Origin: Candidatus Zixiibacteriota bacterium
GTDB taxonomy: Bacteria > Electryoneota > B3-LCP
DNA: 64,000 nucleotides
Reading direction: 5' to 3'
NCBI GenBank assembly: GCA_003599535.1
Contig: QZKQ01000056.1
Location: 6,124 to 70,123, forward strand
The notes under the pieces were generated by a model. It was not told where the DNA came from and ran no database searches. It saw only the letters and a list, made by a program, of their open reading frames with translations. This document shows positions 19,676 through 62,430 of this stretch, piece after piece (the first letter of the stretch is position 1; each line of letters begins with the position of its first letter). A program made the translations under genes and the position numbers.

Positions 19676-19742
19676 AGAGGGGGATACCCGGCCCGGCACA
19701 CGTACAAGCACACACATATTGCTACAATTGATGGAATTTTCT

Positions 19743-36659: not shown

Positions 36660-36661
36660 CC

Positions 36662-44024: not shown

Positions 44025-45131
44025 ATGCCTACCAATCGCCCCTCCCGCCGCCATTTCCTGCTTTTCCTGCTGTTGACGCTGTTCGCCTTCGCCCAGCTCG
44101 GCTGGTGGATCATCTTCCAGATGGAAGAGGGAGCCCGGGTGTCGCGTCTCCAGGAGGACCTGTGGGCCGGCCAGATCGCCACCGCCCGCCAATGGCTGGA
44201 AGTCCACGAAGCCACCTATGCGGAGACCTGGTCCTGGCTGGCGCAGACCTTCCCCGACCTGGAACTGCAGCCGGGCGGCGACTTCGCCGTCAGCGAGGAG
44301 GCGCGGCAGCGGCTGGATCACCTGGCCCGGGGCCGGGTGCGTATGTTCGTGTGGGAAGGTGGATTCTTTACCCTGGTGCTGCTGGCGGGAGTCGGATTCA
44401 TGCTCCGCACCCTGCGCCGCGAGATCCTGACCGAGCGCCGCCAGTCCGTGTTCCTGTCGGCCACTTCGCACGAACTGAAGACCCCCATCACCTCCCTGCG
44501 GCTCTACCTGGACACCCTGATGGAGCGCGACCTCCCCCCTGAGCAGAAGCGCGAGTTGATGACGGTCATGCAGCAGGACCTGCAGCGGCTGACCGACCTG
44601 ATTGACCGCCTGCTGCAAGCTCAGAACCTGTCCGCGGGGCGGCGGTCCGCGTCCCTGCAACTTACCAACCTGACCGAAGAGACCCGCGCCGCCCTGGATC
44701 AGTACGCCGGCGTCTTCGGCCTGAAGGGCTGCCGGCTGGATTCCCGCCTGGAGGAAAACCTCTTCGCCCTGGCCGATCCCGACCGCTGGCAGGTGGTAGT
44801 CAAGAACCTGCTGGACAACGCCTGCAAGTATTCCCCTTCCGGCAGCCCCCTGGAACTGCGCCTGGTTCGCGCCGGGAAGCAGGCCCGCCTGGAAGTCACC
44901 GACCACGGCGCCGGCCTGGAAAAGGGCGACACCGAGCGCATTTTCGAACGCTTCTACCGCGCCGATAACGATGCCACCCGCCGCGCCCGGGGCACCGGCC
45001 TGGGGCTTTACCTGGCCCGCGTCATGGTCGAATCCTTCGGAGGGAAGATTTCCGCGCGCAGCCCGGGACCGGGGCAGGGGAGCACCTTTATCGTAGAACT
45101 GCCGCTGGCGCGGGGAGGGAGCGATGCCTGA
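44025..45131 (+). CDS. two-component sensor histidine kinase
   Basis: N-terminal TM segment, HisKA motif SATSHELKTPITSL and an HATPase_c domain (GTGLGLYLAR). Confidence 0.8.
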   Translation: MPTNRPSRRHFLLFLLLTLFAFAQLGWWIIFQMEEGARVSRLQEDLWAGQIATARQWLEVHEATYAETWSWLAQTFPDLELQPGGDFAVSEEARQRLDHLARGRVRMFVWEGGFFTLVLLAGVGFMLRTLRREILTERRQSVFLSATSHELKTPITSLRLYLDTLMERDLPPEQKRELMTVMQQDLQRLTDLIDRLLQAQNLSAGRRSASLQLTNLTEETRAALDQYAGVFGLKGCRLDSRLEENLFALADPDRWQVVVKNLLDNACKYSPSGSPLELRLVRAGKQARLEVTDHGAGLEKGDTERIFERFYRADNDATRRARGTGLGLYLARVMVESFGGKISARSPGPGQGSTFIVELPLARGGSDA

Positions 45132-45831
45132 ACGCATCCTGATCGTGGAAGACGAGGAGCACATCGCCCGAGGGGTGAAACTCAACCTGGAAGCGGAAGG
45201 ATACCGGGTGGAGGTGGTGGACGACGGGCGGGAGGCCATCGCGCATATCCGCCGCGCCGAACCCGACCTGGTCATCCTGGACGTCAACCTGCCCGGCGTG
45301 GACGGTTTTACCGTATGCGAGACGGTGCGGGGGGAAGGGCGGCGCGTCCCCATCTTGTTCCTGACCGTGCGGGACAGCGAGGACGACCGGGTGCGCGGCC
45401 TGGAACTGGGCGGGGACGACTACCTGGCCAAGCCCTTCAGCATCCGCGAACTGTTGCAGCGGGTCAAGGCCATCCTGCGGCGGGAAGAGTGGTACCGGCA
45501 GGATCCGGCGACCGGCAGCGTCCTGCAGTTCGGCCCCAACCGGGTGGACTTCTCCGCCTACCGGGCCTGGACGCCGCAGGGGGAAATCGCCCTGACCCAG
45601 AAGGAGTGCATGCTGCTGAAGCTGCTGGCGGAAAACGAGGGCCGGGTAGTGGACCGCAATACCATCCTGGACCAGGTGTGGGGCTACGACCGCTACCCGT
45701 CCACCCGCACCATTGACAACCTCATCCTGCGCCTGCGCAAGACCTTCGAAGCCGACCCCAAACGCCCCCGGCATATTCACTCGCTCTACGGGGCGGGGTA
45801 CAAGTTCACCCGGGAGGAGACGGAAGGATGA
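45124..45831 (+). CDS. OmpR/PhoB-family response regulator
   Basis: Receiver domain (ILIVEDEE...VILDVNLPG) with a winged-helix C-terminus (HIHSLYGAGYKF). It overlaps the kinase gene. Confidence 0.85.
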   Translation: MPERILIVEDEEHIARGVKLNLEAEGYRVEVVDDGREAIAHIRRAEPDLVILDVNLPGVDGFTVCETVRGEGRRVPILFLTVRDSEDDRVRGLELGGDDYLAKPFSIRELLQRVKAILRREEWYRQDPATGSVLQFGPNRVDFSAYRAWTPQGEIALTQKECMLLKLLAENEGRVVDRNTILDQVWGYDRYPSTRTIDNLILRLRKTFEADPKRPRHIHSLYGAGYKFTREETEG

Positions 45832-46235: not shown

Positions 46236-48212
46236 TTACTTGAGTAAAACCACCTTCTGCACCTGCGTAAAGTCGCCCGCCTCCAGCCTCACGAAATACG
46301 CCCCCGCCGCCAGCCCCGAGGCGTCAAACGTCAGCTCGTGATTTCCCGCCTCCCGCCAGCCGTCCACCAGCGTTCTGACTTCGCGGCCGGCGGTGTCGTA
46401 GACTTTCAGTCGGATGTGGCCGGCAGCCGGGAGCGTGAAGCCCAGAGCCGTCAGCGGATTAAAAGGGTTGGGCGAGGGCGGCAGCAGGCGGCACTCCTGC
46501 GGCAGCGGCGCGCCGAAGGCCGTGGCGGTGGGGGATTGCCAGTTGAGGAGGGTGCCTGAGGAATACTTGATGGTAACGTAGTCTTCATTTGTCCCCATCC
46601 CGTTACTGCTTCCTGTCACATAAATATTACCGGCTATATCGACATGAAGTCCACCCAATCCGTGATCGACAGCGTTGGCAGGTCCATTGTAACCCGCCAC
46701 CCACATCTGGACTCCGTTAAGGTTGTACTTGATTGTGGTAATATCGCCGTAACTGGATCCCATGACTATTACGTTGCCGCCATCGTCCAAAGCGAGCTTA
46801 TAGCCATAGTCATCAATTGCTCCTGGCCCACTGTAGTATGCCACCCACTGCTCCACGCCATAAGGATCGTACTTAATGGTGGCACAATCGTCGTTATAAA
46901 CAAAAATCTGAGTAAACCCGGTAATATATACATTACCAGCCCCGTCCACAGCCAAATCAAAAGCTTGATCAACCGCATCACCAAGACCATTAAATATCGC
47001 AATCCACTGTTGAATGCCGGCAGAGTCATATTTAATCGTAACATAATCCCAACTTGTCAAGCTTCCATAGCTGGTTCCAGTCACATAAATATTGTCCTCA
47101 GCATCCAATACTAAACTGCGAGCGCAATCTTCATAATTCCCTGATCCGTTATGCCGTGCCACCCATATCTGGTCACCTGACGAATTGTATTTAATGGTAG
47201 CGCAATCATCCGATGTTCCGACTCCATTGCTTTCCCCTGTGACATAAATATCGCCGTCACTGCCTGAGGCTAAACTGTAGGCACGATCGTTGTTAGATGC
47301 AGGGCCATCGTATCTTGCGGCCCATTGCTGGTTTCCCGTAGAATCATACTTGACAGTAGTATAATCTTCGTCACCGCCGATTCCACAACTATACCCAGTC
47401 ACGTATACATTGCCGTCATCATCAATGATAATAGCCACGGCAATATCATGTGAATTTCCAGGCCCATTGTAACGCGCAAGCCACTGACGGACCCCAGAAG
47501 AGTCGTATTTTATTGTGGCATAATCATAGTTTGATCCATTCCCGTAACTTCCACCTGTCACATAGACATTCCCCTGTTCGTCACATGCTAAATCATAGGC
47601 TTCGTCGTCATCATTGCCTGGCCCATTATATTGCGCAATCCACTGCTGGATTCCTGAAGAACTATATTTGATGGTCATATAATCATAGGATGATCCGTTT
47701 CCAGTACAGTAGCCTGTCACGAAGAGATTATCTGAATCATCCGCAACAATATTAGTGGACCAATCTTCGTAGTTTCCCATTCCGTTAAACCGCGCCGTCC
47801 ATTCCTGAATGACTCCTCCCGTCAGCATCTGCTTCTGGAACTGCAGCGTGTCCCCCGCCCAGACGGCGCCGGGGTGCAGCCCCACGTAGGCGCGCAGGGT
47901 GTAGTAGCCCACCGGCGACCCCTGCGTCAGCGGCACACTGCGTTCCCAAGTCATGGTTTCCCCCGCCTGGAAGGTCTGCGTCACCGGCCCAGGCGAGGGC
48001 CCGGCGCTGCCGCTGGGCCGGGAGCTCGTGCCCCAGATATCGGCGCTGATGGTCGGCCCCAGGTTGGTGACGGACAGGCGGTAGGAAAACGTGCCGCCGC
48101 TGTCGGGCAGGACTAGCGGCGTGAGTGGGGTCAGCTCGACGGTGAAGGGTTGGTTCCAACCCGCTGACGGCAGGAGCAGGAGAACCAGGGCGATAAGGGC
48201 GAGGCTTCGCAT
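46236..48212 (-). CDS. secreted SBBP beta-propeller-repeat protein with T9SS C-terminal sorting domain
   Basis: Signal peptide and more than 8 SBBP-like repeats (YNGPGN..D.A.....D..GNVYVTG.S.G.G...DY.TIKYDS.G...W). C-terminus ...AGAYFVRLEAGDFTQVQKVVLLK. Confidence 0.8.
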   Translation of the reverse strand: MRSLALIALVLLLLPSAGWNQPFTVELTPLTPLVLPDSGGTFSYRLSVTNLGPTISADIWGTSSRPSGSAGPSPGPVTQTFQAGETMTWERSVPLTQGSPVGYYTLRAYVGLHPGAVWAGDTLQFQKQMLTGGVIQEWTARFNGMGNYEDWSTNIVADDSDNLFVTGYCTGNGSSYDYMTIKYSSSGIQQWIAQYNGPGNDDDEAYDLACDEQGNVYVTGGSYGNGSNYDYATIKYDSSGVRQWLARYNGPGNSHDIAVAIIIDDDGNVYVTGYSCGIGGDEDYTTVKYDSTGNQQWAARYDGPASNNDRAYSLASGSDGDIYVTGESNGVGTSDDCATIKYNSSGDQIWVARHNGSGNYEDCARSLVLDAEDNIYVTGTSYGSLTSWDYVTIKYDSAGIQQWIAIFNGLGDAVDQAFDLAVDGAGNVYITGFTQIFVYNDDCATIKYDPYGVEQWVAYYSGPGAIDDYGYKLALDDGGNVIVMGSSYGDITTIKYNLNGVQMWVAGYNGPANAVDHGLGGLHVDIAGNIYVTGSSNGMGTNEDYVTIKYSSGTLLNWQSPTATAFGAPLPQECRLLPPSPNPFNPLTALGFTLPAAGHIRLKVYDTAGREVRTLVDGWREAGNHELTFDASGLAAGAYFVRLEAGDFTQVQKVVLLK

Positions 48213-48517: not shown

Positions 48518-48572
48518 AGGAACAACAAAGCCCCATATACGGGGCTCCCTCCAGCCCGCCGCCGGCGGGCTG
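48518..48572 (-). terminator. minus-strand terminator(s) at the end of the radical-SAM operon
   Basis: Minus-strand reading gives hairpin gcccgccggcggcgggc, then hairpin agccccgtatatggggct followed by TTGTTGTT. Confidence 0.5.
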
Positions 48573-48602: not shown

Positions 48603-49157
48603 CTACCCGAGTACCACCCTCAGGTCTTCCTCCGTATTCAGGTTGAACAGCCCCTCCCCGCCTTTCCTCGCCCCCACCGCCTCCCACGCCACTCCCTCCC
48701 AGACCGGGGCGAAGGAATAGTGGATTCCCGCCAGGCGCTCTTCCCACAGGGGCAGGGTGTCGCGGCGGTAGAGCGCCGCCAGCGGTTCGGGGCGGCCGTC
48801 GCGGGTCAGGCAGGCGAGAGGCCGGTGCGATCCGGCGGCCCGCAGCAGCGCCTCCAGGTCGCGCCCGGAGAGTCGCGGCAGGTCCACCGCCAGCACCAGC
48901 GCCCAGTCCGTGGGGCAGACGCGCAGCGCCGCCACCAGCCCGCCCAAGGGGCCGCAGCCGAGGCGCGCGTCGGGCAGCCCACCGGGCAGGTCGTCCCCCA
49001 CCAGCGCCGGGGCCCGGCCCAGCGCCGCTTCGATTCTCCTGGCTGTGGCAGCCAGCAGGGTCCGCCCGTCCAGCCGCAGGAAACGCTTGTCCCGGCCCAG
49101 GCGGGTGGACCGGCCGCCGGCCAGCACGTACCCGGTGACGTGGTGCCGGGGGTTCAC
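48603..49157 (-). CDS. mobA: MobA-like nucleotidyltransferase (molybdenum cofactor guanylyltransferase)
   Basis: GYVLAGGRSTRLGRDKRFLRLDGRTLL, the MobA LAGG.S.RMG.DK motif. GTG start overlaps the upstream stop (GTGA). The longer ORF 5-prime extension overlaps the neighbouring gene. Confidence 0.6.
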   Translation of the reverse strand: MNPRHHVTGYVLAGGRSTRLGRDKRFLRLDGRTLLAATARRIEAALGRAPALVGDDLPGGLPDARLGCGPLGGLVAALRVCPTDWALVLAVDLPRLSGRDLEALLRAAGSHRPLACLTRDGRPEPLAALYRRDTLPLWEERLAGIHYSFAPVWEGVAWEAVGARKGGEGLFNLNTEEDLRVVLG

Positions 49158-49984
49158 GGCTGCTCCCGGGGCGGATCCAGGTGGGCGAAATCCAGCGCCC
49201 GGACGTGGTGGACGGCCTTGCGGGCGAAGTTGGCCGCCGACACCGCGGTGTAGCCCAGCAGCAGTATCAGCCGCAGGGGGAGGTCGTGGCCGGTCATGGT
49301 GAGGCGGGGCAGCAGAATTTCGGCGGCGAAGAACAGGGTCAGCAGGTTCATGGCCGGGTGCACCAGCAGGGTCAGGACGAAGTCCGCCCGGCCGCGCTGT
49401 TGGGTGGTGACGAAGGCCGCGCCCAGGGCGGTGCGGAATTCCGGCCGGCGCAGCACGCCGGGGGCTTTGTCCAGCCGTTCCAGCAGGGTTTCCACCAGGC
49501 AGAAGCGGGGGTAAATGGTCCAGGCCGCCAGGAAGGCGCCGCACAGCAGCGGCACGGCGCTGCCGGTCAGGCGGAAGGCGCCCCAGCCCCAGAAGAAGTA
49601 CATGGCCGTCTTGGGCAGGTGGTCGAAGAGCTTGTCCAGGTATTCCCCGGCCAGGTTGCCGCCCTGGCCGCGGCGGCGGGCCACGTCGCCGTCGGCGGCG
49701 TCCAGGATGAAGTGGACCTGCAGCAGCAGCATGCCCAGCAGCCCCACCCGGGGGTCGGTCGAGACCAGCAGCAGCGCCCCGGGCAACCCCACAAGCAGCT
49801 TCAGCAGGGAGACGCCGTTGCCGGAAAAGCCCAGCGCGGCCAGCAGCGGCGCGACTTTCCGGGCCAGCGGCCGGGCCACCTTGCGGCGGTAAAGCGAGGT
49901 GTCGCAGTAGGGCGGAGCCGGATCCCAGGGCAGATCGGAAGGGCGGGGACGCTCTTCAGCCGCGTTTGCGGATGACGGTGACAC
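49154..49984 (-). CDS. CDP-alcohol phosphatidyltransferase family protein
   Basis: DAADGDVARRRGQGGNLAGEYLDKLFD, the D-G-x2-A-R-x8-G-x3-D-x3-D signature, and multiple TM segments. Confidence 0.75.
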   Translation of the reverse strand: MSPSSANAAEERPRPSDLPWDPAPPYCDTSLYRRKVARPLARKVAPLLAALGFSGNGVSLLKLLVGLPGALLLVSTDPRVGLLGMLLLQVHFILDAADGDVARRRGQGGNLAGEYLDKLFDHLPKTAMYFFWGWGAFRLTGSAVPLLCGAFLAAWTIYPRFCLVETLLERLDKAPGVLRRPEFRTALGAAFVTTQQRGRADFVLTLLVHPAMNLLTLFFAAEILLPRLTMTGHDLPLRLILLLGYTAVSAANFARKAVHHVRALDFAHLDPPREQP

Positions 49985-52226: not shown

Positions 52227-53442
52227 GTCCCACCGAAAAATACGTTCTGGAACCTCGCATGAGCAGGCTTCCGCAATATAATTGTAGGTGCTCGGGATCC
52301 GTAGCGTTTTCGCCCAGAGAATCCCATAGTTCCCAGATAATATATTCGAGCAGCCGCGTTGAGAAATAGCAGTTGCGCCGGTCGAAGGCCCCGACTCCAT
52401 AGATAGACTGTCCGTCGAAAATGCACCCGCCGCCGCAGATGCCAATGGCGGCGCAATCTCGGCATTCCACGTTCAGGAGGGGGATATAGCGGCTCCAATC
52501 CCCTCCTCCGGCCTTCAGTCCGGCTTCGTTGACGCAGGTTGTACGTATGTTTCCGGGAAATACAACAATTTTTTCTCCTTGCGCGGCGCAGTCCCGCAGG
52601 CGGAATTTCCGGTGGACCAGGGGCGCCAGCCGGCGGTTGATCTGGTCCACGAACAGTCCGTGCTCCCGGGCAAAGGGGAAGATGCGGATCAGTGCTTCGG
52701 TGTACTCGGGGAGACGATCCCAGACCTGGCCGTGGTGGTGGTGCGGCAGGTTCAGGCCCAGGCTGGCGGGGCGGAATTCCCGCACGATGGCTTCGACCAG
52801 TTCGGGCAGGGTGGCGATGTTGTGATCACCCACCACGGCGGAGATGCCGTAGTCCAGGCCCAGGTCGCACGCCTCCTTCAGGGCCCGGGCGACCTTGGTG
52901 TAGGATCCCCCCGCCCCGATCCGCGCGGTGTTGTGGGCGAACAGGTCGCCATCCAGGGAAAACAGCACCCCCACCCCGTGATCCCGATAAAAGCGCAGTC
53001 GCGACCGTTCCGTGCGCGTCCCGTTGGTGAAGATGATGATCTTGCCGCGGACCGTCTCCACCAGGTGGTCCACCGCCTCGCGGTAGAGCTCCGGCTCGCC
53101 GCCGGTGATCAGCAGCAGGCCGCCCGGGCCGAGGTCCCGGTTGAATTCCCGGGCCAGCGCGGCGATCTCCTCCCGGCTCATGGCCGGACGGGTCAGCGGC
53201 GGGGCGTTGGCGTCGAAGGAGCAGTAGCTGCAGCGCAGGTTGCACTGCGAGGTGATGACCGCCTGCATGGTGCGGACCCGGGGCGGCGTCAGGGGGATCT
53301 CGATGACGCGCTCCGGTTCCGGCGGGATGGCGCTTCCCGCGGGGAAGTATTCCCGGGTCAGGCCGTAGGCACCCCAGCGGCAGACGTCCTGGCCGCGGCG
53401 GAACAGGTGGTATTTTTCCGGCAGGCGGAGGATTTCGTTCAC
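52210..53442 (-). CDS. radical SAM enzyme with SPASM/twitch auxiliary cluster domain
   Basis: CNLRCSYCSF (CxxxCxxC) and C-terminal CRDCAAIGICGGGC. Confidence 0.8.
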   Translation of the reverse strand: MNEILRLPEKYHLFRRGQDVCRWGAYGLTREYFPAGSAIPPEPERVIEIPLTPPRVRTMQAVITSQCNLRCSYCSFDANAPPLTRPAMSREEIAALAREFNRDLGPGGLLLITGGEPELYREAVDHLVETVRGKIIIFTNGTRTERSRLRFYRDHGVGVLFSLDGDLFAHNTARIGAGGSYTKVARALKEACDLGLDYGISAVVGDHNIATLPELVEAIVREFRPASLGLNLPHHHHGQVWDRLPEYTEALIRIFPFAREHGLFVDQINRRLAPLVHRKFRLRDCAAQGEKIVVFPGNIRTTCVNEAGLKAGGGDWSRYIPLLNVECRDCAAIGICGGGCIFDGQSIYGVGAFDRRNCYFSTRLLEYIIWELWDSLGENATDPEHLQLYCGSLLMRGSRTYFSVGHETGD

Positions 53443-54920
53443 GGCAGTTTTCCTTGCCAGTAGCTGCCCGCGGTAAAGGGCTGGTTGCGGGACGACAGCG
53501 ACACGTTGTCAATCAGGGCCTGGCGGTCGCCCTCGCCGGGGGCAAACCAGGGGCGGGATTCCCCGTCCCGCTGGTCGAACAGGCGCCAGATCATCCAGTT
53601 CAGAAACTCGCGTTCAAAGCGGCAGCGGTCGGGGTCTACCCCGTCCAGGCGCCCGGAGGCCTTGTAGGCGTCGTAGCGGCAGGCGCCCCCGCACACGGTC
53701 ATCGCGGGGCACAAACGGCAGTGGGGCATCTCCGGGGAGGAGAGCCCGGCCCACAGGCGGTGGTCGGGATGGTCCGGCGCCGGGAACGCCTCCCGCGGGT
53801 AAAACCAGCGCCGATCCGGGTAGCAGGAATCGCAGAATCCCATGACTCCGCCGGGAGCCAGCACCAGCCGCTCGCCGGGCGAAGAGCAGTCCTTCAGCAG
53901 GGGATTGCGGAACACGAAGGGACGCAACCGGCGGAAGGGCTGCTCGGCGTAGACGCCGTAGCGGCGGGTCACCTCCCAGCCTTCGATCAGGGCGGGGAAA
54001 GCCTGTTCGGTGGAGAGCTGGTAGGGATTGGGCTGGTCTCCGCGGCGGTGCAGGAAGGCGTTCAGACCGATGTCGTGGGGGTGGAAGCGGTCCACCAGGC
54101 ATTCCACCTGGCGGGCGAAGTCGTCCACGTTGTGCCGCCCCATGGTCACCGACAGCCCCACGCGGCAGCCGCGGGCGGTCAGCAGGTTCCAGGCCCGCTC
54201 GGAGGCGGCGAAAGCCCCTTCGCCCGGCGCGCGGCGCACCGCGTCGTTGACCGGGGGCAGGCCGTCCAGGGAGAGGATGACGAAGACGTCGTGGCGGGCC
54301 AGAACCTCCGCCTGGTACTCCGTCATCCCCAGCCCGGAGGTGGTGAAGCAGAACCGCACCTCGTCCTGGCGGAAGAAGGTCCGGGGGCGGGCCCGGCGCA
54401 GGACCTCCTCCACCAGGGGGAAGGCCAGCAGCGGCTCGCCGCCGTAGACCAGGAGGTCCAGCGGCTTGGTGGTATCGGTGCAGAGCCGGGCGCAGGTTTC
54501 CAGCCCCGCGACGATCTCCTCCCGGGTCATGGTGCGCGCTTCGCCCCGCCCGGTGCGCTGATGGCAGTAGCGGCAACTCAAGGCGCAGTCGGTGGTGGGC
54601 AGCAGGCAAATGAAGCGGAAGGTCCCCCGGCGGGCGGCGGCGGCCAGGGCCTGGTGGTCGGCCTGGTCGGTCCCGGCGCCCCGTGGCAGCAGGATTTTCT
54701 CTTCCCGCAGTCGGGCTGCCAGGTCCGGCGGCAGGCTTTCCCGCACGCCGCCCCGGCGCAGGTAGACCGCGGCCAGGTTCAGGGGGCGGTACAGGGCGAT
54801 CCAGTCGCCGCGCCGGGAAGCCCACAGGTCGCCGGACCACTCCCATTCCGGCGGCGCCGGGGGCAGGAGAGGGGATTCCGGCTGATCCGGGCCGGTTACG
54901 CGGAAAAAATCATCGTGCAT
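53439..54920 (-). CDS. radical SAM enzyme with SPASM domain and about 100-aa N-terminal extension
   Basis: CALSCRYCHQ and C-terminal CDSCYPD...HCRLCPAMTVCGGAC. The N-terminal extension precedes the rSAM core. 25-nt overlap with the upstream gene. Confidence 0.8.
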   Translation of the reverse strand: MHDDFFRVTGPDQPESPLLPPAPPEWEWSGDLWASRRGDWIALYRPLNLAAVYLRRGGVRESLPPDLAARLREEKILLPRGAGTDQADHQALAAAARRGTFRFICLLPTTDCALSCRYCHQRTGRGEARTMTREEIVAGLETCARLCTDTTKPLDLLVYGGEPLLAFPLVEEVLRRARPRTFFRQDEVRFCFTTSGLGMTEYQAEVLARHDVFVILSLDGLPPVNDAVRRAPGEGAFAASERAWNLLTARGCRVGLSVTMGRHNVDDFARQVECLVDRFHPHDIGLNAFLHRRGDQPNPYQLSTEQAFPALIEGWEVTRRYGVYAEQPFRRLRPFVFRNPLLKDCSSPGERLVLAPGGVMGFCDSCYPDRRWFYPREAFPAPDHPDHRLWAGLSSPEMPHCRLCPAMTVCGGACRYDAYKASGRLDGVDPDRCRFEREFLNWMIWRLFDQRDGESRPWFAPGEGDRQALIDNVSLSSRNQPFTAGSYWQGKLP

Positions 54921-55921
54921 AGGTAATTCTCATGCACCAGCCCCTTGCTTTCCTTCCAGCGGGCGGGAATGACCGGGTGGTCGCCGCGGACTTTGAAGCA
55001 GTATTCGTCCGGTTCGGCCGGATGGCCCAGCAGCCGCCGCGAGGCGCAGCCGCCGGCGCACACTTCAAGGGCGGAACAATCCCGGCAGACCGCGGGAACG
55101 GGCAATTCCATACTCTGCACCATTTTCCGGCGCTGGGTTTCGAAGCTGGAGAGCAGGTCGTCCAGCGTGGTGGTGCTGTGGTTCAGGTAAACGCAGGGTA
55201 CCACCTTGCCGTCGGCGTGCACCCGGAAGCTGTGCCTGCCGCAGGGGTTGCCGTGGTTGGCGCGCGGGTTGCCGATAGCGGCGTTGACCACCGGTTCGCT
55301 GCACGCGCTGAAGGCCGCCGCGCCAGCCATATCCGCGATGGCCTGCCAGAACTGCTCGTAGGTCGGCCGGTGATCGCGGCTGTGCACCGGCTTGTACACG
55401 TTGACCCGAAGGTTCAGGTCCAGTTTGCACGCCAATTCGGCCAGCTTCCCCATGGTGGCGGCGTTCTCCCGCATCAGGCAGCCCACCAGGCTGGCCTCGA
55501 CTCCCAGGTCGCGGCAGCGGGCCACCCCTTCCATGACGTAGTCGAACGACCCCTGCCCCCGCCACCGATCGTTGGTCTCGGCGTCGGGGTAGTCCAGGGA
55601 GAAGTCAATGTCGTGGAAGCGGCGCAGGTCCGCGTCGGGCAACTGGTGGACCGTCAATCCGTTGGTGGTCACCGCCAGGTCAATGCTCCGGTCCGACAGC
55701 TCTCGCACCAGCTCGGTGAACCGGGGATAGAGGATGCTTTCGCCGGTGCCGAAATTGATGCTTTCGACCGGCAGGCGGTTGACCAGGGACAGGACCTGCG
55801 CGTAATCCAGGTCATGGTACCCGTTGTGGGATCGGGAATAGCAGTGCGGGCAGGCGGCATTGCAGCGGTCGGTCAGCCCAATGCCGAAGGTGAAGCCGGG
55901 GGAGGTCCGATTTTCCCTCAT
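54896..55921 (-). CDS. radical SAM enzyme with SPASM/twitch domain
   Basis: CNAACPHCYS and C-terminal CRDCSALEVCAGGC. Confidence 0.8.
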   Translation of the reverse strand: MRENRTSPGFTFGIGLTDRCNAACPHCYSRSHNGYHDLDYAQVLSLVNRLPVESINFGTGESILYPRFTELVRELSDRSIDLAVTTNGLTVHQLPDADLRRFHDIDFSLDYPDAETNDRWRGQGSFDYVMEGVARCRDLGVEASLVGCLMRENAATMGKLAELACKLDLNLRVNVYKPVHSRDHRPTYEQFWQAIADMAGAAAFSACSEPVVNAAIGNPRANHGNPCGRHSFRVHADGKVVPCVYLNHSTTTLDDLLSSFETQRRKMVQSMELPVPAVCRDCSALEVCAGGCASRRLLGHPAEPDEYCFKVRGDHPVIPARWKESKGLVHENYLCTMIFSA

Positions 55922-56712
55922 CGTTCGATTCGTCCTATCAGAGCTTCTCGGGCAATGCGGGCGTAATATTCGGGTTGGTCCTCAATGTCGAACAGATCCA
56001 GGGTGAAGAAACCGGAATAGTGGATGGCCTGGAAGGCGGCGAGCAGCGCGGCGAAGTCCAGGTCCCCTTCGCCGGGAATCCGGTGGCGGTGTTCCCGGCC
56101 GCGGATGTCCTCGATATGGGTGTGAACGATCCGTTCGCCCCAGCGGACGATGTCCCGGCCGAGGTCGGGTTCGGTGATATGGGCGTGCCCTACGTCGAGG
56201 TTGACTTTCAGCCGGGGTGATCCCACCACCTGGATCAGCATTTCCATTTCCCGGGTGCCGGCGATCACCGTGCCCGGCTCCGGTTCCACGGCGAAGTCCA
56301 CCCCGAATTCCTCGGCGTAGCGGCACATCCGGGTGGTGAAGCGGCACATAGCCGCGAAGGCCTCTTCCCCCTCGCCTGCCAGCGATCCGGAGATGAAGGT
56401 TCGCACGCCCAGGTCGCGGGCCAGCTCCAGGCCGGCCAGGCCCTTGCGCTGCTTCTCCTGCCAGCCGGCGCGCTTGCCGTGGAAACTGACCGCGGCGGCC
56501 TGCAGGCCGCTCTCCTCCAGGATCCGGCGCAGGGTGGGAAAATCGCAGCGTCCGGGTGCATCGGGATCCAGGTCGCTGTGCTCCAGGCACAGTTCGACCC
56601 CGTCGTAGCCCAGCTCCCGCAGAGTCTGGAGCGCTTCGGGCAGACTCCGCCGCCGGAAACCGGACAGACGAAAACCGATTTTTCCCGCCAGAAACCAGTA
56701 GAGATCCTGCAT
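55918..56712 (-). CDS. xylose isomerase-like TIM-barrel sugar phosphate isomerase/epimerase
   Basis: About 264 aa with the AP-endo2/xylose isomerase-like pattern (GYDGVEL...HGK...VEPEPGT...DVGHAHI...HIEDIRG). Confidence 0.7.
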   Translation of the reverse strand: MQDLYWFLAGKIGFRLSGFRRRSLPEALQTLRELGYDGVELCLEHSDLDPDAPGRCDFPTLRRILEESGLQAAAVSFHGKRAGWQEKQRKGLAGLELARDLGVRTFISGSLAGEGEEAFAAMCRFTTRMCRYAEEFGVDFAVEPEPGTVIAGTREMEMLIQVVGSPRLKVNLDVGHAHITEPDLGRDIVRWGERIVHTHIEDIRGREHRHRIPGEGDLDFAALLAAFQAIHYSGFFTLDLFDIEDQPEYYARIAREALIGRIER

Positions 56713-56735: not shown

Positions 56736-58934
56736 TCATTCCGGGGCCGCCGCCTCGAGGTTGCACACGAAGCAGCGGAAGGGGTAGCCGAACCCTCCCG
56801 GCCCCTGCAATCCCGAGGGCAGCAGCTCGTTGACGTTGCTGCGCCGCACCCCGAAGAGTTCCGGCGCGGCGGCCTCGCGTTCCGGGAACCACCAGCCGCT
56901 GTCGCAGTGCACGATCCCCGGCGCGAACCGGTCGCTGACGCGAGCCCGCATCAGGCAACTGCCGAAGGGGCTGTACACCCGCACGGGGTCCCCGTCGCCC
57001 ACGCCGGCTTGCGCGGCCGTGTCGGGGTGGAGATCGGCCAGGGGTTCCGGCTGCCGGCGGCGCAGCGCGGGGAGGTTGCGGTGCTCCGAGCCGAAGTAGT
57101 AGGGCCGCCGCGAACCGCTAGTCAATATATATGGGTAATTTTGGACGCCGTATTGGTGACGGTAATCACCCATGTAATCATGGTAATGCGGGGTGGAAGC
57201 CAGCCCCATGGCCCGCAGCGCCGGCGAGTCCAGCTCGACCTTGGCCGACGGGGTGGCGAACCCCGGAGCGCCGTCGCCGCGCAGCCGGCCGCTCTCGTGT
57301 TTTCCGTATTCCAGCGGCGGCACCTGCGATCCCCGCTCGCGCAGTTCGGCGAAGGTGAGCCCCGAAGGCTTCAGCCGCTCTTCGATCCACTCCCCGGCAT
57401 CTTTCCAGGGGAAGCGGTGCGGCGCGACCCGGCGGCCCACGGCCAGGACGATCTCGGCGTCGCTGCGGCACTCCCCCGGCGGGTCCACCGCCCGGTTGAT
57501 GGTCCCCAACTGGGCGAAGTGAACGTACAGACTGTCCTTTTCCGGGTACATGGCCGCGGGCAGGATCACGTCCGCCAGGGCCACCGCTGCGGGGTTCAGG
57601 AACACGTCCACCATGACCATGAAATCCAGCGTGCCGAACAGTCGCAGCACCCGCCCGGGGTCGGCGAAGGAGGAGGGCACGATCCCCGTCCCCTGCAGCC
57701 AGGCCGCCTTGATAGGGTAGGGCTGCCCCGTCTCCATCTGGTCCAGCAGCACGTCGGGCTGGGCGTAGGGGTTGCCGGTCTCCAGCAGGGGGTAGCGTCC
57801 CGCCCCGAGCCGCGGGGATTGGACCTCGGGGAAGGCGGCCGCCTCGTCCCCGCGGCGCAGCACCCCGAAGGGCGATCCCTGCAGCACGTTGCCGCCGGGC
57901 GTTTCCAGGCTGCCGGTCAGGGCGACCAGGGCCAGCAGCCCGTGGATGGTCCCCAGGCAGCCCGGGTTCATGTCCACGGACACTCCCCACACCAGGGGGA
58001 AAGGCCGCGCCCACCCCAGGAAGCGCGCCGCTTCGGTCAGGGCGGCGGCGTCCACCCCGGTCAGTTCGGCGGTGCGCTCCGGGGTGTAGGGTTCGGCCGC
58101 CGTCCGCAGCGCTTCCAGGCCCAGGATCCAGTCGCGGCAGAAGGCCTCGTCCACCAGCCCGGCGTGGAACAGCTCGCGGATCATTCCCAAAGCCAGGGCG
58201 CCGTCGGAACCGGGACGCAACCGCAGCCAGTGCCGCGCCCGGGCCGCCGCGCCGGTCTTCTGCGGATCCACCACCACCAGCTCGGCGCCGTCCCGCAGGC
58301 GGTCGGTCACCCAGCCTCCGAACAGGCCGTCGGGGTTGGATACCACCGGGTTGGAACCCCACACCAGGAGGGTGCGCGGCGTCCGGTACACGCCTGGCGG
58401 GGTGGCGAATTCGCCCAGGTCGGGCAGCGGCAGGCCGCCCAGAACGGCCGTGGACAGGGCCACCCGGGGGCGATAGCAGGCGTTGCCGTTGCCGGGCCCC
58501 AGGCCGAAATAGTTGGGGCTGCCGAAACTCCAGGCCAGGCGGGGCAGCCAGGCGCCCACGTCGCGGGCCGTGCCCTTGCAGAAGATGACGGATTCCGGCC
58601 CAAAGCGCTGCCGGATCTCCAGGAGGCGCCGGGCCACCAGGTCCGCGGCTTCGTCGAAGCCGGCCCGCCGCCAGCGATTCTCACCCCGCGCCCCCACCCG
58701 GATCAGCGGATGGGTCAGCCGCTGGGGGTGGTACATGGCCTGGGCGACGTTGCGCCCCCGGGGGCACATCCGCCCGTCATTGTGACGGTTGTCCCGGTCG
58801 CCCTCCACGTCCACCAGCCGGCCTCCCCGGACCCGCAGCAGGACGCCGCAGCCGCCGTGGCATCCCGGCGGCGACCAGCAGACCGAGCGGATGATCTCGG
58901 CGTCGCCTTCCCGGCGGCGGTACCCGGAGCTCAT
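56736..58934 (-). CDS. molybdopterin (bis-MGD) oxidoreductase of the DMSO-reductase superfamily, cytoplasmic
   Basis: N-terminal 4Fe-4S motif CWSPPGCHGGCGV...C and a molybdopterin dinucleotide-binding C-terminal domain. The real start MSSGYRRREG at 58934 overlaps the upstream stop (ATGA). The 1029-aa ORF-track version has a non-coding extension. Confidence 0.75.
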   Translation of the reverse strand: MSSGYRRREGDAEIIRSVCWSPPGCHGGCGVLLRVRGGRLVDVEGDRDNRHNDGRMCPRGRNVAQAMYHPQRLTHPLIRVGARGENRWRRAGFDEAADLVARRLLEIRQRFGPESVIFCKGTARDVGAWLPRLAWSFGSPNYFGLGPGNGNACYRPRVALSTAVLGGLPLPDLGEFATPPGVYRTPRTLLVWGSNPVVSNPDGLFGGWVTDRLRDGAELVVVDPQKTGAAARARHWLRLRPGSDGALALGMIRELFHAGLVDEAFCRDWILGLEALRTAAEPYTPERTAELTGVDAAALTEAARFLGWARPFPLVWGVSVDMNPGCLGTIHGLLALVALTGSLETPGGNVLQGSPFGVLRRGDEAAAFPEVQSPRLGAGRYPLLETGNPYAQPDVLLDQMETGQPYPIKAAWLQGTGIVPSSFADPGRVLRLFGTLDFMVMVDVFLNPAAVALADVILPAAMYPEKDSLYVHFAQLGTINRAVDPPGECRSDAEIVLAVGRRVAPHRFPWKDAGEWIEERLKPSGLTFAELRERGSQVPPLEYGKHESGRLRGDGAPGFATPSAKVELDSPALRAMGLASTPHYHDYMGDYRHQYGVQNYPYILTSGSRRPYYFGSEHRNLPALRRRQPEPLADLHPDTAAQAGVGDGDPVRVYSPFGSCLMRARVSDRFAPGIVHCDSGWWFPEREAAAPELFGVRRSNVNELLPSGLQGPGGFGYPFRCFVCNLEAAAPE

Positions 58935-60268
58935 GGTTCGCTCCCGGCCAGCACGTTTTTCCGGCCGAAGCGGAGGCCGTAGTGAAAGTGCAGCGCCAGG
59001 ACCGTGTTCAGCAGGGGCGAACGGCTCCGGCGGCAGAACAGGTCCTTCAGCCCGGCGGCCGAGCGGGGCAGCAGCGCCTCGTCGCTGACGGCCTCGCCGA
59101 AACGCAGCCGGGCCAGTGGCGTGCCCGGCTCCGGGCGGATGTAGCTGAACTTGTAGCGGATCAGGCGCCGGCCCAGGCGCCTGCGAGCCCGCAGCAGGAA
59201 CCGCGCCGCGGCCAGGAAGTCCTTCCAGCCCGATCCCGGCACCGCGGCGAAGAAGTTGTAGGAGACCCGCGCCTGCCCGTCCTGCGCCAGCAGGCCCAGG
59301 GAACGGTGCAGCGATTCCACCGTGGTCGCCTTGCCCAGGGTTTTCAGGGCCGAGGCCGTGGCAGCGTCGGGGGACAGGTAGAACTCGTCGCAGCCGGACT
59401 GCCGGGCCAGGGCGATGTATTCGGCGGTCAGGTAGCGATCCTGCTGGTAGGCCCCCCAGCGCACCTTCACGCCGCGATCCAGCAGGGCGCGGCAGACGGC
59501 TTGGGCGTGCCCGGCGGGGTGGTTGAACACCGGGTCGCAGAAGAACACCCGCTGCACACCGTAACGTTGCGCCAGGGTTTCCACTTCCGCCGCCACCCGT
59601 GCGGGGTCCTTCAGGCGCAGTCCGGACCCGCTGAGCTGGGGATAGGTGCAGTAGGCGCAGGCCAGGGCGCAGCCGCGCTTGGTTTCCACCCCCACGGCGG
59701 CGCGGTCGGCGTAGCGGGCGTAGGGCGCCAGGTCCACCAGCTCCCAGGCGGGGGGCGGAATGCGGTCGAAGTCCAGCCTCTCTCCGGGGCCGGAAAAGGT
59801 CACCGTCCCCCGGTCGCGGTACCACAGGCCCGGAATCGCGGCGGGGCCGCCGCCCCGGCAGAGGAATTCCGGGAAGGAGACGTCCGCCTCCAGGAAGAAC
59901 CCGGCGGCCAGTTCCGGAACCCGCTCCAGCACCAGCCGGGGAAAGAGCGAGAAGCCGCTGCCGCCCACGACCAGGACGGCGCGCGGCGCCAGCTTGCGCA
60001 GTTCCTGGACGAAGCGCTGAAAGTGTTCGAAGTAAAAGAAGGGATCGCTGTACTTGGTGGTGTCAATATTGCGCAGGGACAGGCCGATGAGGTCCGGCTG
60101 AAAGTCCTGAATGACGGAGCGAGTATCCTCCAGCGGGCGGCGTGCCACGTTGGGGTCGAACAGGCGGAGGGTGTGGTCGGAAAGGTGCGCCGCCAGGCTG
60201 GCCAGCCCCAGGGGCGCCACCGGAGGTTCCCGGCGGCCCAGGTACGACTGCAAGAGCAGGAGGCGCAT
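58931..60268 (-). CDS. B12-binding-domain radical SAM enzyme (class B rSAM)
   Basis: N-terminal cobalamin-binding Rossmann-like domain and CALACAYCTY radical-SAM cluster. First gene of the operon. Confidence 0.8.
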   Translation of the reverse strand: MRLLLLQSYLGRREPPVAPLGLASLAAHLSDHTLRLFDPNVARRPLEDTRSVIQDFQPDLIGLSLRNIDTTKYSDPFFYFEHFQRFVQELRKLAPRAVLVVGGSGFSLFPRLVLERVPELAAGFFLEADVSFPEFLCRGGGPAAIPGLWYRDRGTVTFSGPGERLDFDRIPPPAWELVDLAPYARYADRAAVGVETKRGCALACAYCTYPQLSGSGLRLKDPARVAAEVETLAQRYGVQRVFFCDPVFNHPAGHAQAVCRALLDRGVKVRWGAYQQDRYLTAEYIALARQSGCDEFYLSPDAATASALKTLGKATTVESLHRSLGLLAQDGQARVSYNFFAAVPGSGWKDFLAAARFLLRARRRLGRRLIRYKFSYIRPEPGTPLARLRFGEAVSDEALLPRSAAGLKDLFCRRSRSPLLNTVLALHFHYGLRFGRKNVLAGSEP

Positions 60269-60426
60269 AATGGCGTTTTTCCGGGATGACTGCGGCCGAA
60301 GATCTCAGCGGTGCTAATAGTAATATAGCATGGATGAAACGGAAAGTCAAGTAAATAGTTGAGCAATGGGAAGGTTTTTTAACCCCGAAAGGATCGAATG
60401 AAAAGCCGTCCGCGAAATCCGGAATG

Positions 60427-60636: not shown

Positions 60637-62430
60637 TTATTTAAGCAGCATCCCCCGCTGCACCAGTACACGCCCCCCGGCTTCCAGGCGGAAGAAGTAG
60701 ATCCCGGAGGCCACCCCGGACGCATCCCAGACCGCCTCGTGGACCCCCGCCGGGCGGACGCCGTCCAGCAGGGTGGCCGTCCGGCGGCCCAAGGCGTCGT
60801 ACACCGCCAGGCGCACCAGCCCGGATTGCGGCAGCGAGAATGGCACCGTGGTCGCGGGATTGAAGGGGTTGGGGTGGGGTGGGGCCAGGGCGAATTCCGC
60901 AGGTTGCTGGGGAACGCCCGCCGGAGCCGGTTCTCCTGCATTCTCGCCCCAGGACAGGTCCCAGGCGGCCGCCTCGTCGCCACCCGGGTCTTGGCCGGTG
61001 ATGGTAAAGGCGAAGCTGGCGGCATCCCAGATCTCGCCCGGATTGGGGCCCGCGTTGACCGCGAGGAGGTACCCTCCAGGCGGTGCGGCTGCGGGAATGC
61101 CCAGGCGGACGGGCAGGGTGAGCTGCTGTCCGGGAGCCAGCGACAGCGGCGCGGGCGCGCCGAAGTTGATTTGCTGCCCCGTGGGCCGGGTGATCCGGAT
61201 CCAGGCCTGGAAGCCCTGCGCCTGGCCTGCCGTTTCGTCAAATCCCGCGCTGAATTCCAGCGTCCCGCCCGGAGGCACAGTGGTTGAGCCCGGAGTCAGC
61301 GTGACGGAGACCGGGGAGTTCAGGTCGAAGGCGCGCAGCCGGCCGTCGGCCGAGCCGACCACCAGCCGGCCGCCGGCCACCGCGGGGGAACTTTCCACGA
61401 AGCCTCCGGCCGGAGCCCAGTCCAGCACCGCCCCGGTGAAGGCGTCCAGGACGTATACCTTGCCTTCGTTGCTGCCCAGGTAGAGCGCTCCGTTGGCCAG
61501 GGCCGGGCTGGAAAGCAGCGCCCAATCGCCGAGAGAGCGGGTCCACAGGGGGGCGCCGTCGTCCAGGTCGTAGGCTGATACCGAGCCCTGGAAGCCGGCC
61601 GTGTACACCGCGCCGTAACCCACCGCCGGGGCCGCGTAGCGGAAGTCCATGGGGCCGAAATCCCGCTGCCAGACGACTGCACCCGTAGTAGAGGAAACCG
61701 CGGTCAGGCGGTTGAAGGACAGTCCGCCGCCGTTGGCGATGGAGCCGAACACCACCTTGCCCTCGGCGGCCACCGGCGCGCTGTACACCGCGCCCGGTGC
61801 GGTCACGGTCCACAGTGGGGCGCCCGCGGGGGTGAGGGCGTGGATCATCTCGTCATCGCCGGAGAAAAAGACGTTCTGCCCGTCGGTGGAGGGGGCGGTG
61901 CGCACGTCGCCGTCGGTGACCAGGGAGAAGACGGGGTTGCCGGTGGCGGCCTGGTAGGCGCGGAAGCGGTGATCCATGCCTCCGACGTATACCTGATCCT
62001 GGAACACCAGCGGGGAGGACTCCACCCAGGACCCGGTGACGGCCTGCCACAGCGGCGCACCGGTCACGGCGTCGAAGCAGTACACCTTGTGGTCGCTGGC
62101 GCCCAGGTAGATCCGCCCGCCGGCCACGGCCGGGGCGCCTTCCGACCAACTGCCCAGCATTTGCTGCCAGAGTGTTGCTCCGGTGGCGGCGTCCAGGCAG
62201 ACCAGCCTGGCATCCGCGGTGCCGACGTAAACGCGCCCGGCGGCCATAACCGGGGAGGCGTACACTGGTGATTCCAGGTCCGCCTCCCACAGGTGTACCA
62301 GGCCGGCAGTGGTTATTTCCGGGTTATGGCCGGTGCGCGCCGGGTTGCCGTGAAGCAGTGGCCAGTCGGCGCGCGCCGCCGGGAGCGGTAATCCGAGCAG
62401 CAGGGAGAGGAGTATCAAGCGTTTCATCAC
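60637..62430 (-). CDS. secreted PQQ-like (BamB-type) beta-propeller repeat protein with T9SS C-terminal sorting domain
   Basis: Signal peptide and repeated ...GRVYVGTADARLVCLDAATGATLWQ... blades. Pre-CTD domain is paralogous to the other three cargo proteins. C-terminus HPNPFNPATTVPFSLPQSGLVRLAVYDALGRR...GIYFFRLEAGGRVLVQRGMLLK. Confidence 0.8.
   Translation of the reverse strand: MMKRLILLSLLLGLPLPAARADWPLLHGNPARTGHNPEITTAGLVHLWEADLESPVYASPVMAAGRVYVGTADARLVCLDAATGATLWQQMLGSWSEGAPAVAGGRIYLGASDHKVYCFDAVTGAPLWQAVTGSWVESSPLVFQDQVYVGGMDHRFRAYQAATGNPVFSLVTDGDVRTAPSTDGQNVFFSGDDEMIHALTPAGAPLWTVTAPGAVYSAPVAAEGKVVFGSIANGGGLSFNRLTAVSSTTGAVVWQRDFGPMDFRYAAPAVGYGAVYTAGFQGSVSAYDLDDGAPLWTRSLGDWALLSSPALANGALYLGSNEGKVYVLDAFTGAVLDWAPAGGFVESSPAVAGGRLVVGSADGRLRAFDLNSPVSVTLTPGSTTVPPGGTLEFSAGFDETAGQAQGFQAWIRITRPTGQQINFGAPAPLSLAPGQQLTLPVRLGIPAAAPPGGYLLAVNAGPNPGEIWDAASFAFTITGQDPGGDEAAAWDLSWGENAGEPAPAGVPQQPAEFALAPPHPNPFNPATTVPFSLPQSGLVRLAVYDALGRRTATLLDGVRPAGVHEAVWDASGVASGIYFFRLEAGGRVLVQRGMLLK

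Follow-up and report, generated by a model that had tools for sequence, protein, structure and literature searches.

Genomic region and its radical SAM operon

The window analysed here is a stretch of 64,000 nucleotides from contig QZKQ01000056.1 of a Candidatus Zixiibacteriota bacterium (assembly GCA_003599535.1, positions 6,124 to 70,123 of the forward strand), and the gene under study encodes a molybdenum or tungsten (Mo/W) enzyme, called the Mo enzyme below, which is a candidate member of the catechol dehydroxylase class. It is the second of eleven tightly packed minus-strand genes that run from 60268 to 48603 (~11.7 kb) and include several radical S-adenosylmethionine (rSAM) enzymes (Table 1). 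The open reading frame (ORF) begins with the ATG at 58934, ends with the stop at 56736 and has 732 amino acids (aa), one fewer than the 733 of the original prediction. Its start overlaps the stop of the upstream B12-binding rSAM (B12-rSAM) gene in the sequence ATGA, and Pfam confirms that the gene lies, as was predicted, between this B12-rSAM gene (58931-60268) and an AP_endonuc_2 TIM-barrel gene (55918-56712). An identical protein is already recorded from a Candidatus Zixiibacteriota metagenome-assembled genome.

Three Pfam models match the Mo enzyme above their gathering cut-offs: Molybdop_Fe4S4 at residues 17-69 (46.9 bits), Molybdopterin at residues 72-500 (96 bits) and Molydop_binding at residues 603-707 (68.9 bits). 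The protein is thus a member of the dimethyl sulfoxide (DMSO) reductase superfamily (MopB), whose cofactor, bis-molybdopterin guanine dinucleotide (bis-MGD), it is predicted to bind. The AlphaFold model (pLDDT 88.9, pTM 0.90) superposes in Foldseek on MopB structures with TM scores of 0.72-0.87. The top match is acetylene hydratase (2e7z; TM 0.87/0.88, root mean square deviation (rmsd) 3.0, 26% identity), PsrA follows with TM 0.79, and formate dehydrogenases have TM ~0.75.

The N-terminus, MSSGYRRREGDAEIIRSVCW, has RRR followed by acidic residues and no hydrophobic stretch, and the iron-sulfur (Fe-S) domain starts at about residue 12. A signal for twin-arginine translocation (Tat), that is a twin-arginine followed by a hydrophobic region, is absent, the N-terminus MSSGYRRREGDAEII leading straight on to the Fe-S domain. 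The operon contains no gene for an Fe-S or heme partner, and the window no homolog of the small ferredoxin described below. The original prediction of a stand-alone cytoplasmic member of the superfamily, with no electron-transfer partner subunit, agrees with these results.

Table 1. Operon genes and associated features in the window
Feature	Positions	Strand	Basis
Sigma-70-like promoter, TTGACT-17 nt-TATATT, extended -10 TG, ~55 nt upstream of the first gene	60322..60350	-	10/12 consensus matches; consensus match only
B12-binding radical SAM enzyme, 445 aa, first gene	58931..60268	-	Pfam B12-binding + Radical_SAM
Mo/W bis-MGD enzyme, 732 aa, candidate catechol-dehydroxylase class (soluble Cldh/Dodh type), rSAM-cluster-associated subclade	56736..58934	-	Pfam, phmmer, neighbour-joining tree, Foldseek, motifs
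N-terminal Fe-S domain, residues 17-69: C19 (58878-58880), C25 (58860-58862), His26, C29 (58848-58850), C57 (58764-58766)	58728..58886	-	Pfam Molybdop_Fe4S4 + alignments
Cys153, predicted Mo/W ligand, motif A-C-Y-R-P-R	58476..58478	-	alignment with acetylene hydratase and PsrA
Xylose-isomerase-like TIM barrel, 264 aa (sugar/cyclitol epimerase, isomerase or dehydratase family)	55918..56712	-	Pfam AP_endonuc_2
Radical SAM/SPASM enzyme 1 (rSAM1), 341 aa	54896..55921	-	Pfam Radical_SAM + SPASM; best PDB match BlsE, weak
Radical SAM enzyme 2 (rSAM2), 493 aa, ~100-aa N-terminal extension	53439..54920	-	Pfam; best PDB match CteB 5wgg, 60 bits
Radical SAM enzyme 3 (rSAM3), 410 aa	52210..53442	-	Pfam; PDB BlsE, anSME, all weak
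SAM-dependent methyltransferase 1, 235 aa	51483..52190	-	Pfam Methyltransf_11/25; gene call on Joint Genome Institute (JGI) copy of contig
Cytidylyltransferase, LicC/IPCT/PntC type, 241 aa	50758..51483	-	Pfam NTP_transf_3; NCBIfam IPCT domain 68 bits
SAM-dependent methyltransferase 2, 276 aa	49956..50786	-	Pfam
Hydrophobic CDP-alcohol phosphotransferase, 276 aa, presumably membrane	49154..49984	-	Pfam CDP-OH_P_transf; NCBIfam archaetidylinositol-phosphate synthase 46 bits
MobA-type molybdenum cofactor guanylyltransferase, 184 aa	48603..49157	-	NCBIfam, homologs, context
Two G+C-rich hairpins just 3' of the mobA stop, likely operon end	48527..48572	-	pattern match; count not above shuffle expectation

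Conservation of the gene cluster

The rSAM cluster was found in about ten independent metagenomic loci, in three gene arrangements. The full set has ten genes, which encode the B12-rSAM enzyme, the Mo enzyme, the TIM barrel, three rSAM/SPASM enzymes, two methyltransferases, the cytidylyltransferase and the CDP-alcohol transferase. In the first arrangement all ten are present in the same order (L002, L006, L008 and L001, the last being the same contig as L004), and a Calditrichaeota locus (L007) keeps this order and lacks the TIM barrel, having a 140-bp gap at 3870-4010 between the Mo enzyme and rSAM1, so that the TIM-barrel step may be dispensable or encoded elsewhere in that genome. The copies of Candidatus Tariuqbacter (L005) and of L017 are cut by contig ends, and more complete ones belong to a bacterium from Lake Pavin sediment, to candidate division LCP-89, to a bacterium from the Black Sea and to one further uncultured bacterium. 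The second arrangement (L019, L020/L021) has all ten genes at 30-43% identity, with the B12-rSAM gene shifted behind the first methyltransferase gene. The third (L014, and in partial form L009) has the Mo enzyme, the B12-rSAM enzyme, three rSAMs, the TIM barrel, a nucleotidyltransferase and one methyltransferase, together with a 114-aa ferredoxin. The pair of cytidylyltransferase and CDP-alcohol transferase is kept in two of the three arrangements and was not seen in L009/L014. The Mo enzyme is co-inherited with the nine other genes, and this synteny over about ten loci makes it integral to the rSAM operon.

More distant relatives have other neighbours. None of the ten-gene-set neighbours occurs in the 74 metagenome loci whose Mo enzyme is at most 41% identical, and in 62 of these loci the Mo enzyme gene is adjoined by a small ferredoxin gene of one orthologous family (~110 aa). 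The ferredoxin is present also in L014 and L018. Annotated neighbours of the distant relatives look catabolic, for example in a Moorella locus and in a Thermodesulfobacteriota locus with amidohydrolase_2 genes and transporters.

The Moorella sulfitireducens contig (L013, 1-20244) has a Cldh-like Mo enzyme and the small ferredoxin beside an AthL-like transhydroxylase and its beta subunit, and also BKACE, 3-hydroxyacyl-CoA dehydrogenase, SDR, cyclase and thiolase genes similar to those of the published anaerobic phloroglucinol pathway; it looks like a polyphenol-degradation island with two different Mo enzymes. In Enterocloster clostridioformis (L011, 3797-10244) the pair of ferredoxin and Cldh-like Mo enzyme lies directly downstream of rSAM/SPASM, B12-rSAM and rSAM/SPASM genes, in a locus of glycan type (GLF, GT2, YdjC, PglD-like, DegT). 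This locus was rejected as a link between the window operon and glycan synthesis, since its rSAM genes are not orthologous (20% identity) and the resemblance is probably due to chance adjacency.

Fe-S cluster motif and metal ligand

The alignments give the N-terminal cysteines of the Mo enzyme the spacing C19-x5-C25-x3-C29-x27-C57. Of the CxxCxxxC...C motif that had been predicted, the four cysteines are there and the spacing is not, a four-residue insert, S-P-P-G, separating the first and second Fe-S cysteines relative to the canonical CxxCxxxC. The first cysteine, C19, is kept in all five metagenome loci that belong to the rSAM-associated clade (L018 and four that have rSAM genes) and in none of the 59 other loci. 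In these 59 relatives (from the set L017-L095), and likewise in the dehydroxylases Cldh and Dodh, Ala, Thr, Val or Ser stands in its place. Cys19 is a clean sequence marker that tracks the split between the members in rSAM operons and the ferredoxin-adjacent members. The relatives that lack C19 are left with three N-terminal cysteines, and their cluster could be 3Fe-4S or use a non-Cys ligand.

The original prediction asked whether Cys, Ser or Asp coordinates the metal, and the alignment predicts Cys, namely Cys153. This residue is unchanged across 20 relatives and throughout alignments A1 and A2, and it aligns with a Cys at the same position of acetylene hydratase and PsrA, which we take to be the metal ligand of those structures. 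The motif C-x-x-P-R at Cys153 is common to Cldh, Dodh, Dadh and the Streptomyces and Desulfomonile homologs, and is missing from acetylene hydratase, which has C-I-G-N, and from the outgroup. The residue after the ligand is Tyr154; formate dehydrogenases, as we assume, have His after their ligand Sec/Cys. His26, which follows the second Fe-S cysteine, is invariant in the family, and acetylene hydratase has at this position an Asp that is presumably its catalytic Asp13. Cys-His at the second Fe-S cysteine is found in the dehydroxylase-class sequences compared, except Dadh, and GWW(F/Y)PE near the C-terminus is common to these sequences (GWWFPE in the Mo enzyme). These class motifs were derived in this analysis from 8 reference sequences and are not a published definition. 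The features described are consistent with a bis-MGD enzyme (Mo or W) that is soluble and cytoplasmic, has a Cys ligand and carries a single Fe-S cluster at its N-terminus, with ligand and cofactor predicted from the sequence.

Assignment to the catechol dehydroxylase class

The study of Maini Rekdal et al. 2020 (PMC7028382) provided, in its source data, the reference sequences for the class, which were copied by hand from the supplementary alignments. That study places a protein in the class when its match to Cldh or Dadh has >30% identity with E<1e-34, and when it is closer to these and to acetylene hydratase than to other characterised bis-MGD enzymes. In phmmer the Mo enzyme matches Gordonibacter Cldh with 483 bits (34% identity over 754 columns, E ~1e-148) and Dodh with 469 bits (34%), followed by the homologs from the yatakemycin cluster (389 bits, 36%), Desulfomonile tiedjei (369 bits, 31%) and the CC-1065 cluster (320 bits, 32%). 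Lower scores are given by an acetylene-hydratase-like protein of D. oleovorans (249 bits, 28%), acetylene hydratase (220 bits, 28%), E. lenta Dadh (194 bits) and a Psr-like outgroup (60 bits, 24%). The other families in PDB and NCBIfam reach at most 213 bits; among solved structures acetylene hydratase is the best sequence match, followed by PsrA (193 bits) and FdhF (191 bits). No NCBIfam model approaches its cut-off, as seen with Fdh-alpha (213 against 666 bits), PhsA (199 against 694) and NasC (137 against 1100).

A neighbour-joining tree was built from 36 sequences over 734 columns, with 100 bootstraps and a small hand-assembled reference set. In it acetylene hydratase and Dadh are set apart, with a support of 90/100, from the soluble Cldh/Dodh-type family, and within this family the rSAM-associated clade, supported by 99/100, holds the window protein, its relatives at 50-71% identity and a group at 46-48%. 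These results place the Mo enzyme in a distinct subclade of the small, Tat-less Cldh/Dodh subtype of the catechol dehydroxylase class, a membership that does not by itself imply the activity.

The original prediction compared the protein with acetylene hydratase and pyrogallol transhydroxylase. The former comparison is apt, acetylene hydratase being the nearest solved structure, and the latter enzyme proved distant, ranking 43rd by fold. Pyrogallol-phloroglucinol transhydroxylase (AthL) was rejected as a close relative, as it gives no PDB sequence match at E<1e-5, has a TM score of 0.74 and has no counterpart of its beta-subunit gene here.

MobA-type protein at the operon end

The last gene of the operon, 48603-49157, starts with a GTG, in a 4-nt overlap with the stop of the CDP-alcohol transferase gene. 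Of its ten NCBIfam matches the top eight are MobA models, and the match to TIGR02665 is full-length; the scores are under the equivalog cut-offs (73.8 against 164 and 67.7 against 152 bits). Those homologs that have a name are without exception called MobA, and the motifs LAGGxxxRxGxDK, GPLGG and D-x-P, which we take to resemble those of E. coli MobA, can be read from the translation. One homolog (49% identity) lies directly upstream of mobB (L015), and another (43%) lies in a moaC-MOT1-MOSC-moeA-mobA operon (L016). On this evidence the ORF is accepted as a real mobA.

Only this genome has a mobA gene joined to the cluster: the other cluster copies and the 79 metagenome loci gave none. This absence and the ordinary molybdenum cofactor (Moco) operons of its closest homologs make it look like a housekeeping-type gene that was co-transcribed by chance or by recruitment. 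It is a lineage-specific addition and not a defining component of the cluster. The identity and last position that the original prediction gave to the operon's own mobA are therefore retained, and its tie to the cluster is not, every other copy examined lacking it. Other Moco genes (moa, moe, mog, mod) are absent from the approximately 30 further ORFs of the window.

Partner proteins in the operon

The B12-rSAM enzyme, whose gene is kept in the syntenic loci, has as nearest NCBIfam models BzaD (257 bits) and the 'lipid biosynthesis B12/rSAM' family (179 bits), both below cut-off, and matches TsrM, AprD4 and TokK in PDB. It was rejected as BzaD itself, an enzyme of benzimidazole lower-ligand synthesis, since the score lies under the cut-off of 450 and no other bza genes are present; the likeness is a hint of methylation at an sp2 carbon. 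The TIM barrel has weak NCBIfam matches to fructoselysine epimerase, IolE and IolO, and PDB matches to MJ1311 and psicose epimerases. BlsE, the best PDB match of rSAM1, is a cytosylglucuronate decarboxylase that acts on a cytosine-bearing sugar. The NCBIfam matches of rSAM2 are peptide-maturase models, all far below cut-off. The SPASM gathering score is reached by rSAM1 only, and rSAM2 and rSAM3 match SPASM-type maturase models.

The cytidylyltransferase has PDB matches to 6pd1, IPCT (2xme, 4mnd) and LicC (1jyk). The CDP-alcohol phosphotransferase has an intact catalytic motif, D-x2-D-G-x2-A-R...G-x3-D-x3-D, which was read from the translation, as were its hydrophobic stretches. Weak NCBIfam matches in the operon to the DVU_1551 and DVU_1556 families were set aside as uninformative. 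The search for promoter patterns found 4 sites against 0.9 expected.

Comparison with described systems

The dehydroxylases of Gordonibacter are smaller enzymes that have no Tat signal and are paired with a small 4Fe-4S protein (PMC7028382), and purified Cldh dehydroxylates dihydroxyenterodiol (PMC11887054). Cldh of G. pamelaeae, also named (-)-Eddh, is the catechol lignan dehydroxylase and Dodh is the 3,4-dihydroxyphenylacetic acid (DOPAC) dehydroxylase. The Mo enzyme resembles them in size (732 aa against 799 and 788), in the absence of a Tat signal, and in the insert motif W-S/T-x-P-G-C-H-x-G-C, C-x-x-P-R and GWWFPE, and it forms one clade with them against acetylene hydratase and Dadh. It differs in keeping C19, which Cldh and Dodh have lost, and in having no adjacent gene for the small 4Fe-4S partner that is a feature of the subtype. 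Its gene lies in a biosynthetic rSAM operon, whereas theirs lie in a catabolic locus beside a transporter.

Homologs of dehydroxylases are also contained in the CC-1065 and yatakemycin gene clusters (Wu 2017 and Huang 2012, cited in PMC7028382), and in CC-1065 the class has genetic precedent for a biosynthetic dehydroxylation (PMC7028382). The putative dehydroxylases of these Streptomyces clusters are Mo enzymes of the same class in a biosynthetic setting and have C-H-G-G-C-G and C-x-x-P-R in common with the window enzyme, but they have the canonical C-x2-C-H and no insert. The clusters encode actinobacterial benzodipyrrole antitumour pathways and have no genes in common with the window operon. 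The original prediction called a Mo enzyme within a biosynthetic operon unusual; synteny shows that the enzyme belongs to the operon, and the precedent of the same class in the two clusters (PMC7028382) takes away part of that claim.

Acetylene hydratase of Pelobacter acetylenicus (2e7z) is likewise a stand-alone cytoplasmic protein that has a single Fe-S cluster and a Cys ligand and lacks a partner subunit. In sequence it differs, the match reaching only 220 bits, and the window enzyme has His26 for Asp, C-x-x-P-R for C-I-G-N and the insert in its Fe-S motif. The cytidylyltransferase and the CDP-alcohol phosphotransferase match best the enzymes of di-myo-inositol-phosphate synthesis (IPCT/DIPPS) and of LicC/PntC activation. 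Their scores are far below the cut-offs, the two activities are here encoded by separate genes with a methyltransferase gene between them, and the operon has no inositol-phosphate synthase.

Since PMC7028382 reports the CC-1065 and yatakemycin homologs, neither the enzyme type nor its biosynthetic use is new. What appears to be new is the deep, well-supported subclade marked by Cys19 and by the loss of ferredoxin in most copies, its conserved ten-gene partnership with the B12-rSAM enzyme, the SPASM rSAMs and the pair of cytidylyltransferase and CDP-alcohol transferase, and its occurrence in uncultured environmental phyla. Full-text literature searches and the family libraries yielded no described pathway with this combination of genes, and the literature searches no account of the cluster.

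Possible role of the molybdenum enzyme

A pathway for a tailored phospho-alcohol is proposed from the cytidylyltransferase matches, the CDP-alcohol phosphotransferase, the BlsE-like rSAMs and the BzaD-like and 'lipid'-like B12-rSAM enzyme, the idea of a cytidine monophosphate (CMP) handle coming from the matches to PntC, IPCT and LicC and from those of the rSAMs to BlsE. The LicC/IPCT-type cytidylyltransferase would put the CMP handle on a phosphorylated alcohol, and the handle-bound intermediate would be tailored by the three rSAM/SPASM enzymes, by the B12-rSAM enzyme, which is probably a C-methylase, by the TIM-barrel epimerase/dehydratase and by the two methyltransferases, with C- and O-methylation. 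The Mo enzyme would remove or relocate a ring hydroxyl, most likely by cleaving a C-O bond reductively in a cyclic intermediate that is catechol-like or polyhydroxylated. In the last step the membrane CDP-alcohol phosphotransferase would transfer the tailored phospho-group to an acceptor, possibly a lipid or polyol, and in this genome the guanylylated cofactor would be provided through the co-transcribed mobA.

As all close relatives that have been characterised carry out reductive dehydroxylation, this is the most likely chemistry, and a dedicated C-O-cleaving tailoring step is in our analysis the most likely role of the enzyme. The original prediction had named hydroxylation, dehydroxylation or a hydratase step, and this reading is partly supported: dehydroxylation has the best support of the three, the nearest characterised sequence relatives being catechol dehydroxylases. 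A dehydroxylase-class Mo enzyme in a ten-gene rSAM operon, acting in a handle pathway, is the best explanation of the locus, and we regard it as about evenly poised between right and wrong; we infer the reaction chemistry, the order of the steps, the nature of substrate and product and the electron source.

Several points weigh against this explanation. The metal could be Mo or W, an identity of 34% leaves the chemistry unfixed in a class most of whose members are uncharacterised, and the tree is a neighbour-joining tree of 36 sequences and not a maximum likelihood tree with a full reference set. One cluster copy (L007) has no TIM barrel, and neither a substrate nor a gene that makes an aromatic ring is identifiable in the operon. 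The small ferredoxin was found neither in the window nor in L001-L008, which leaves no obvious donor for a reductive reaction. This absence keeps a redox-neutral reaction of the acetylene hydratase kind as the main rival, that is a hydration, dehydration or hydroxyl transfer in which the Fe-S cluster only tunes the metal site and no partner is needed. Such a reaction is unlikely. It would fit the closest solved structure, acetylene hydratase (TM 0.87, rmsd 3.0), the lack of the family's typical ferredoxin in the loci of the clade except L014 and L018, and the invariant His26 at the position of the acetylene hydratase Asp (presumably Asp13). However, the sequence is more than twice as close to the dehydroxylases as to acetylene hydratase, with which it does not have C-x-x-P-R in common as it does with the dehydroxylases, and the Asp is replaced by His as in the compared dehydroxylase-class sequences except Dadh. 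Pyrogallol transhydroxylase, moreover, is distant (no match at E<1e-5; TM 0.74), and the ferredoxin is kept in L014 and L018.

The enzyme could also work in the oxidative direction, as a water-dependent hydroxylase or dehydrogenase that adds a hydroxyl or carbonyl under anoxia. Many enzymes of the MopB superfamily hydroxylate with water, and the pathway is otherwise of anaerobic rSAM type, with no oxygenase in the Pfam and NCBIfam results, but no characterised member of the nearest clade works in this way and no electron acceptor subunit is encoded, so that this direction is improbable. Slightly less probable still is the maturation of a ribosomally synthesized and post-translationally modified peptide (RiPP), in which the Mo enzyme would edit a modified aromatic side chain. 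The best matches of rSAM2 and rSAM3 are to peptide-maturase models and CteB, and rSAM2 has its N-terminal extension of ~100 aa where maturases have a peptide-recognition domain; these maturase matches are nevertheless all far below cut-off, and the pair of cytidylyltransferase and CDP-alcohol transferase, kept in two of three arrangements, is not RiPP-like. This reading is weakened further because no conserved precursor-like small ORF emerged from tblastx and a comparison of small ORFs, which in seven loci covered the 900 bp to either side of the cluster. The probability is close to nil that the protein is an ordinary formate dehydrogenase, assimilatory nitrate reductase or polysulfide/thiosulfate reductase whose gene just happens to adjoin rSAM genes. 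Fdh-alpha and PhsA are the top NCBIfam models by score, but at 213 and 199 bits they fall far short of their cut-offs, Tyr and not His (as assumed for formate dehydrogenases) follows the ligand Cys, there is no Tat signal or partner subunit, and the same rSAM neighbours are found in about ten independent loci, never in a respiratory context. Together with the tree, these points effectively rule out the Fdh, Nas and Psr assignments, in agreement with the original prediction.

The place of the Mo enzyme as a fixed part of this operon in several uncultured lineages speaks for an anaerobic pathway, so far undescribed, in which molybdenum chemistry serves to build a molecule and not to break one down. 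A more specific version, which we consider a doubtful working idea, is that uncultured bacteria of the Fibrobacteres-Chlorobi-Bacteroidetes (FCB) group and others use a CMP/CDP handle to build a methylated head group, cyclic or aromatic, by rSAM chemistry and Mo-dependent dehydroxylation, and install it on a membrane lipid or polyol; the retention of Cys19 with the loss of ferredoxin in most copies would reflect a changed electron delivery, for example by an rSAM/SPASM partner or a general ferredoxin. Nearly all that is known of catechol dehydroxylases concerns catabolic enzymes from gut Actinobacteria, and the greater part of the class is uncharacterised. The subclade gives the class a conserved biosynthetic setting in Zixibacteria, LCP-89, Calditrichaeota, Candidatus Tariuqbacter and others, and the product of the operon could be a new lipid head group or solute.

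Other genes of the window

Several large repeat proteins, secreted and of SBBP or PQQ beta-propeller type, are encoded next to the operon on both sides and at scattered places in the window, at 46236-48212 (-), 60637-62430 (-), 3853-5700 (+) and 19928-20647 (+). Three of them carry type-IX-secretion C-terminal sorting domains, which fits an organism of the FCB group. A run of tetrapyrrole/heme genes at 32553-44009 (+) encodes porphobilinogen deaminase, uroporphyrinogen decarboxylase, ferrochelatase, a protoporphyrinogen-oxidase-like amine oxidase, glutamyl-tRNA reductase, 5-aminolevulinic acid (ALA) dehydratase and a class-III aminotransferase, and it is followed at 44025-45831 by a histidine kinase and a response regulator.

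An ORF of 999 aa at 13484-16483 (+) has a SAM-methyltransferase domain followed by a C-terminal TIR domain. The G+C content around it is 0.48, against ~0.6 in the immediate flanks and 0.62-0.70 in the operon region, and the ORF may be a horizontally acquired defence-type gene. The window has at 7247-10412 a pair of methyltransferase and PMT_2 genes, and L015 has, downstream of mobA-mobB at 13593-20600, PMT_2 glycosyltransferases, a methyltransferase, GT2 genes, a B12-rSAM gene and YdjC; the two regions may represent a recurring module of glycan or lipid modification. A C_GCAxxG_C_C putative redox protein is encoded at 1764-2609 (+).

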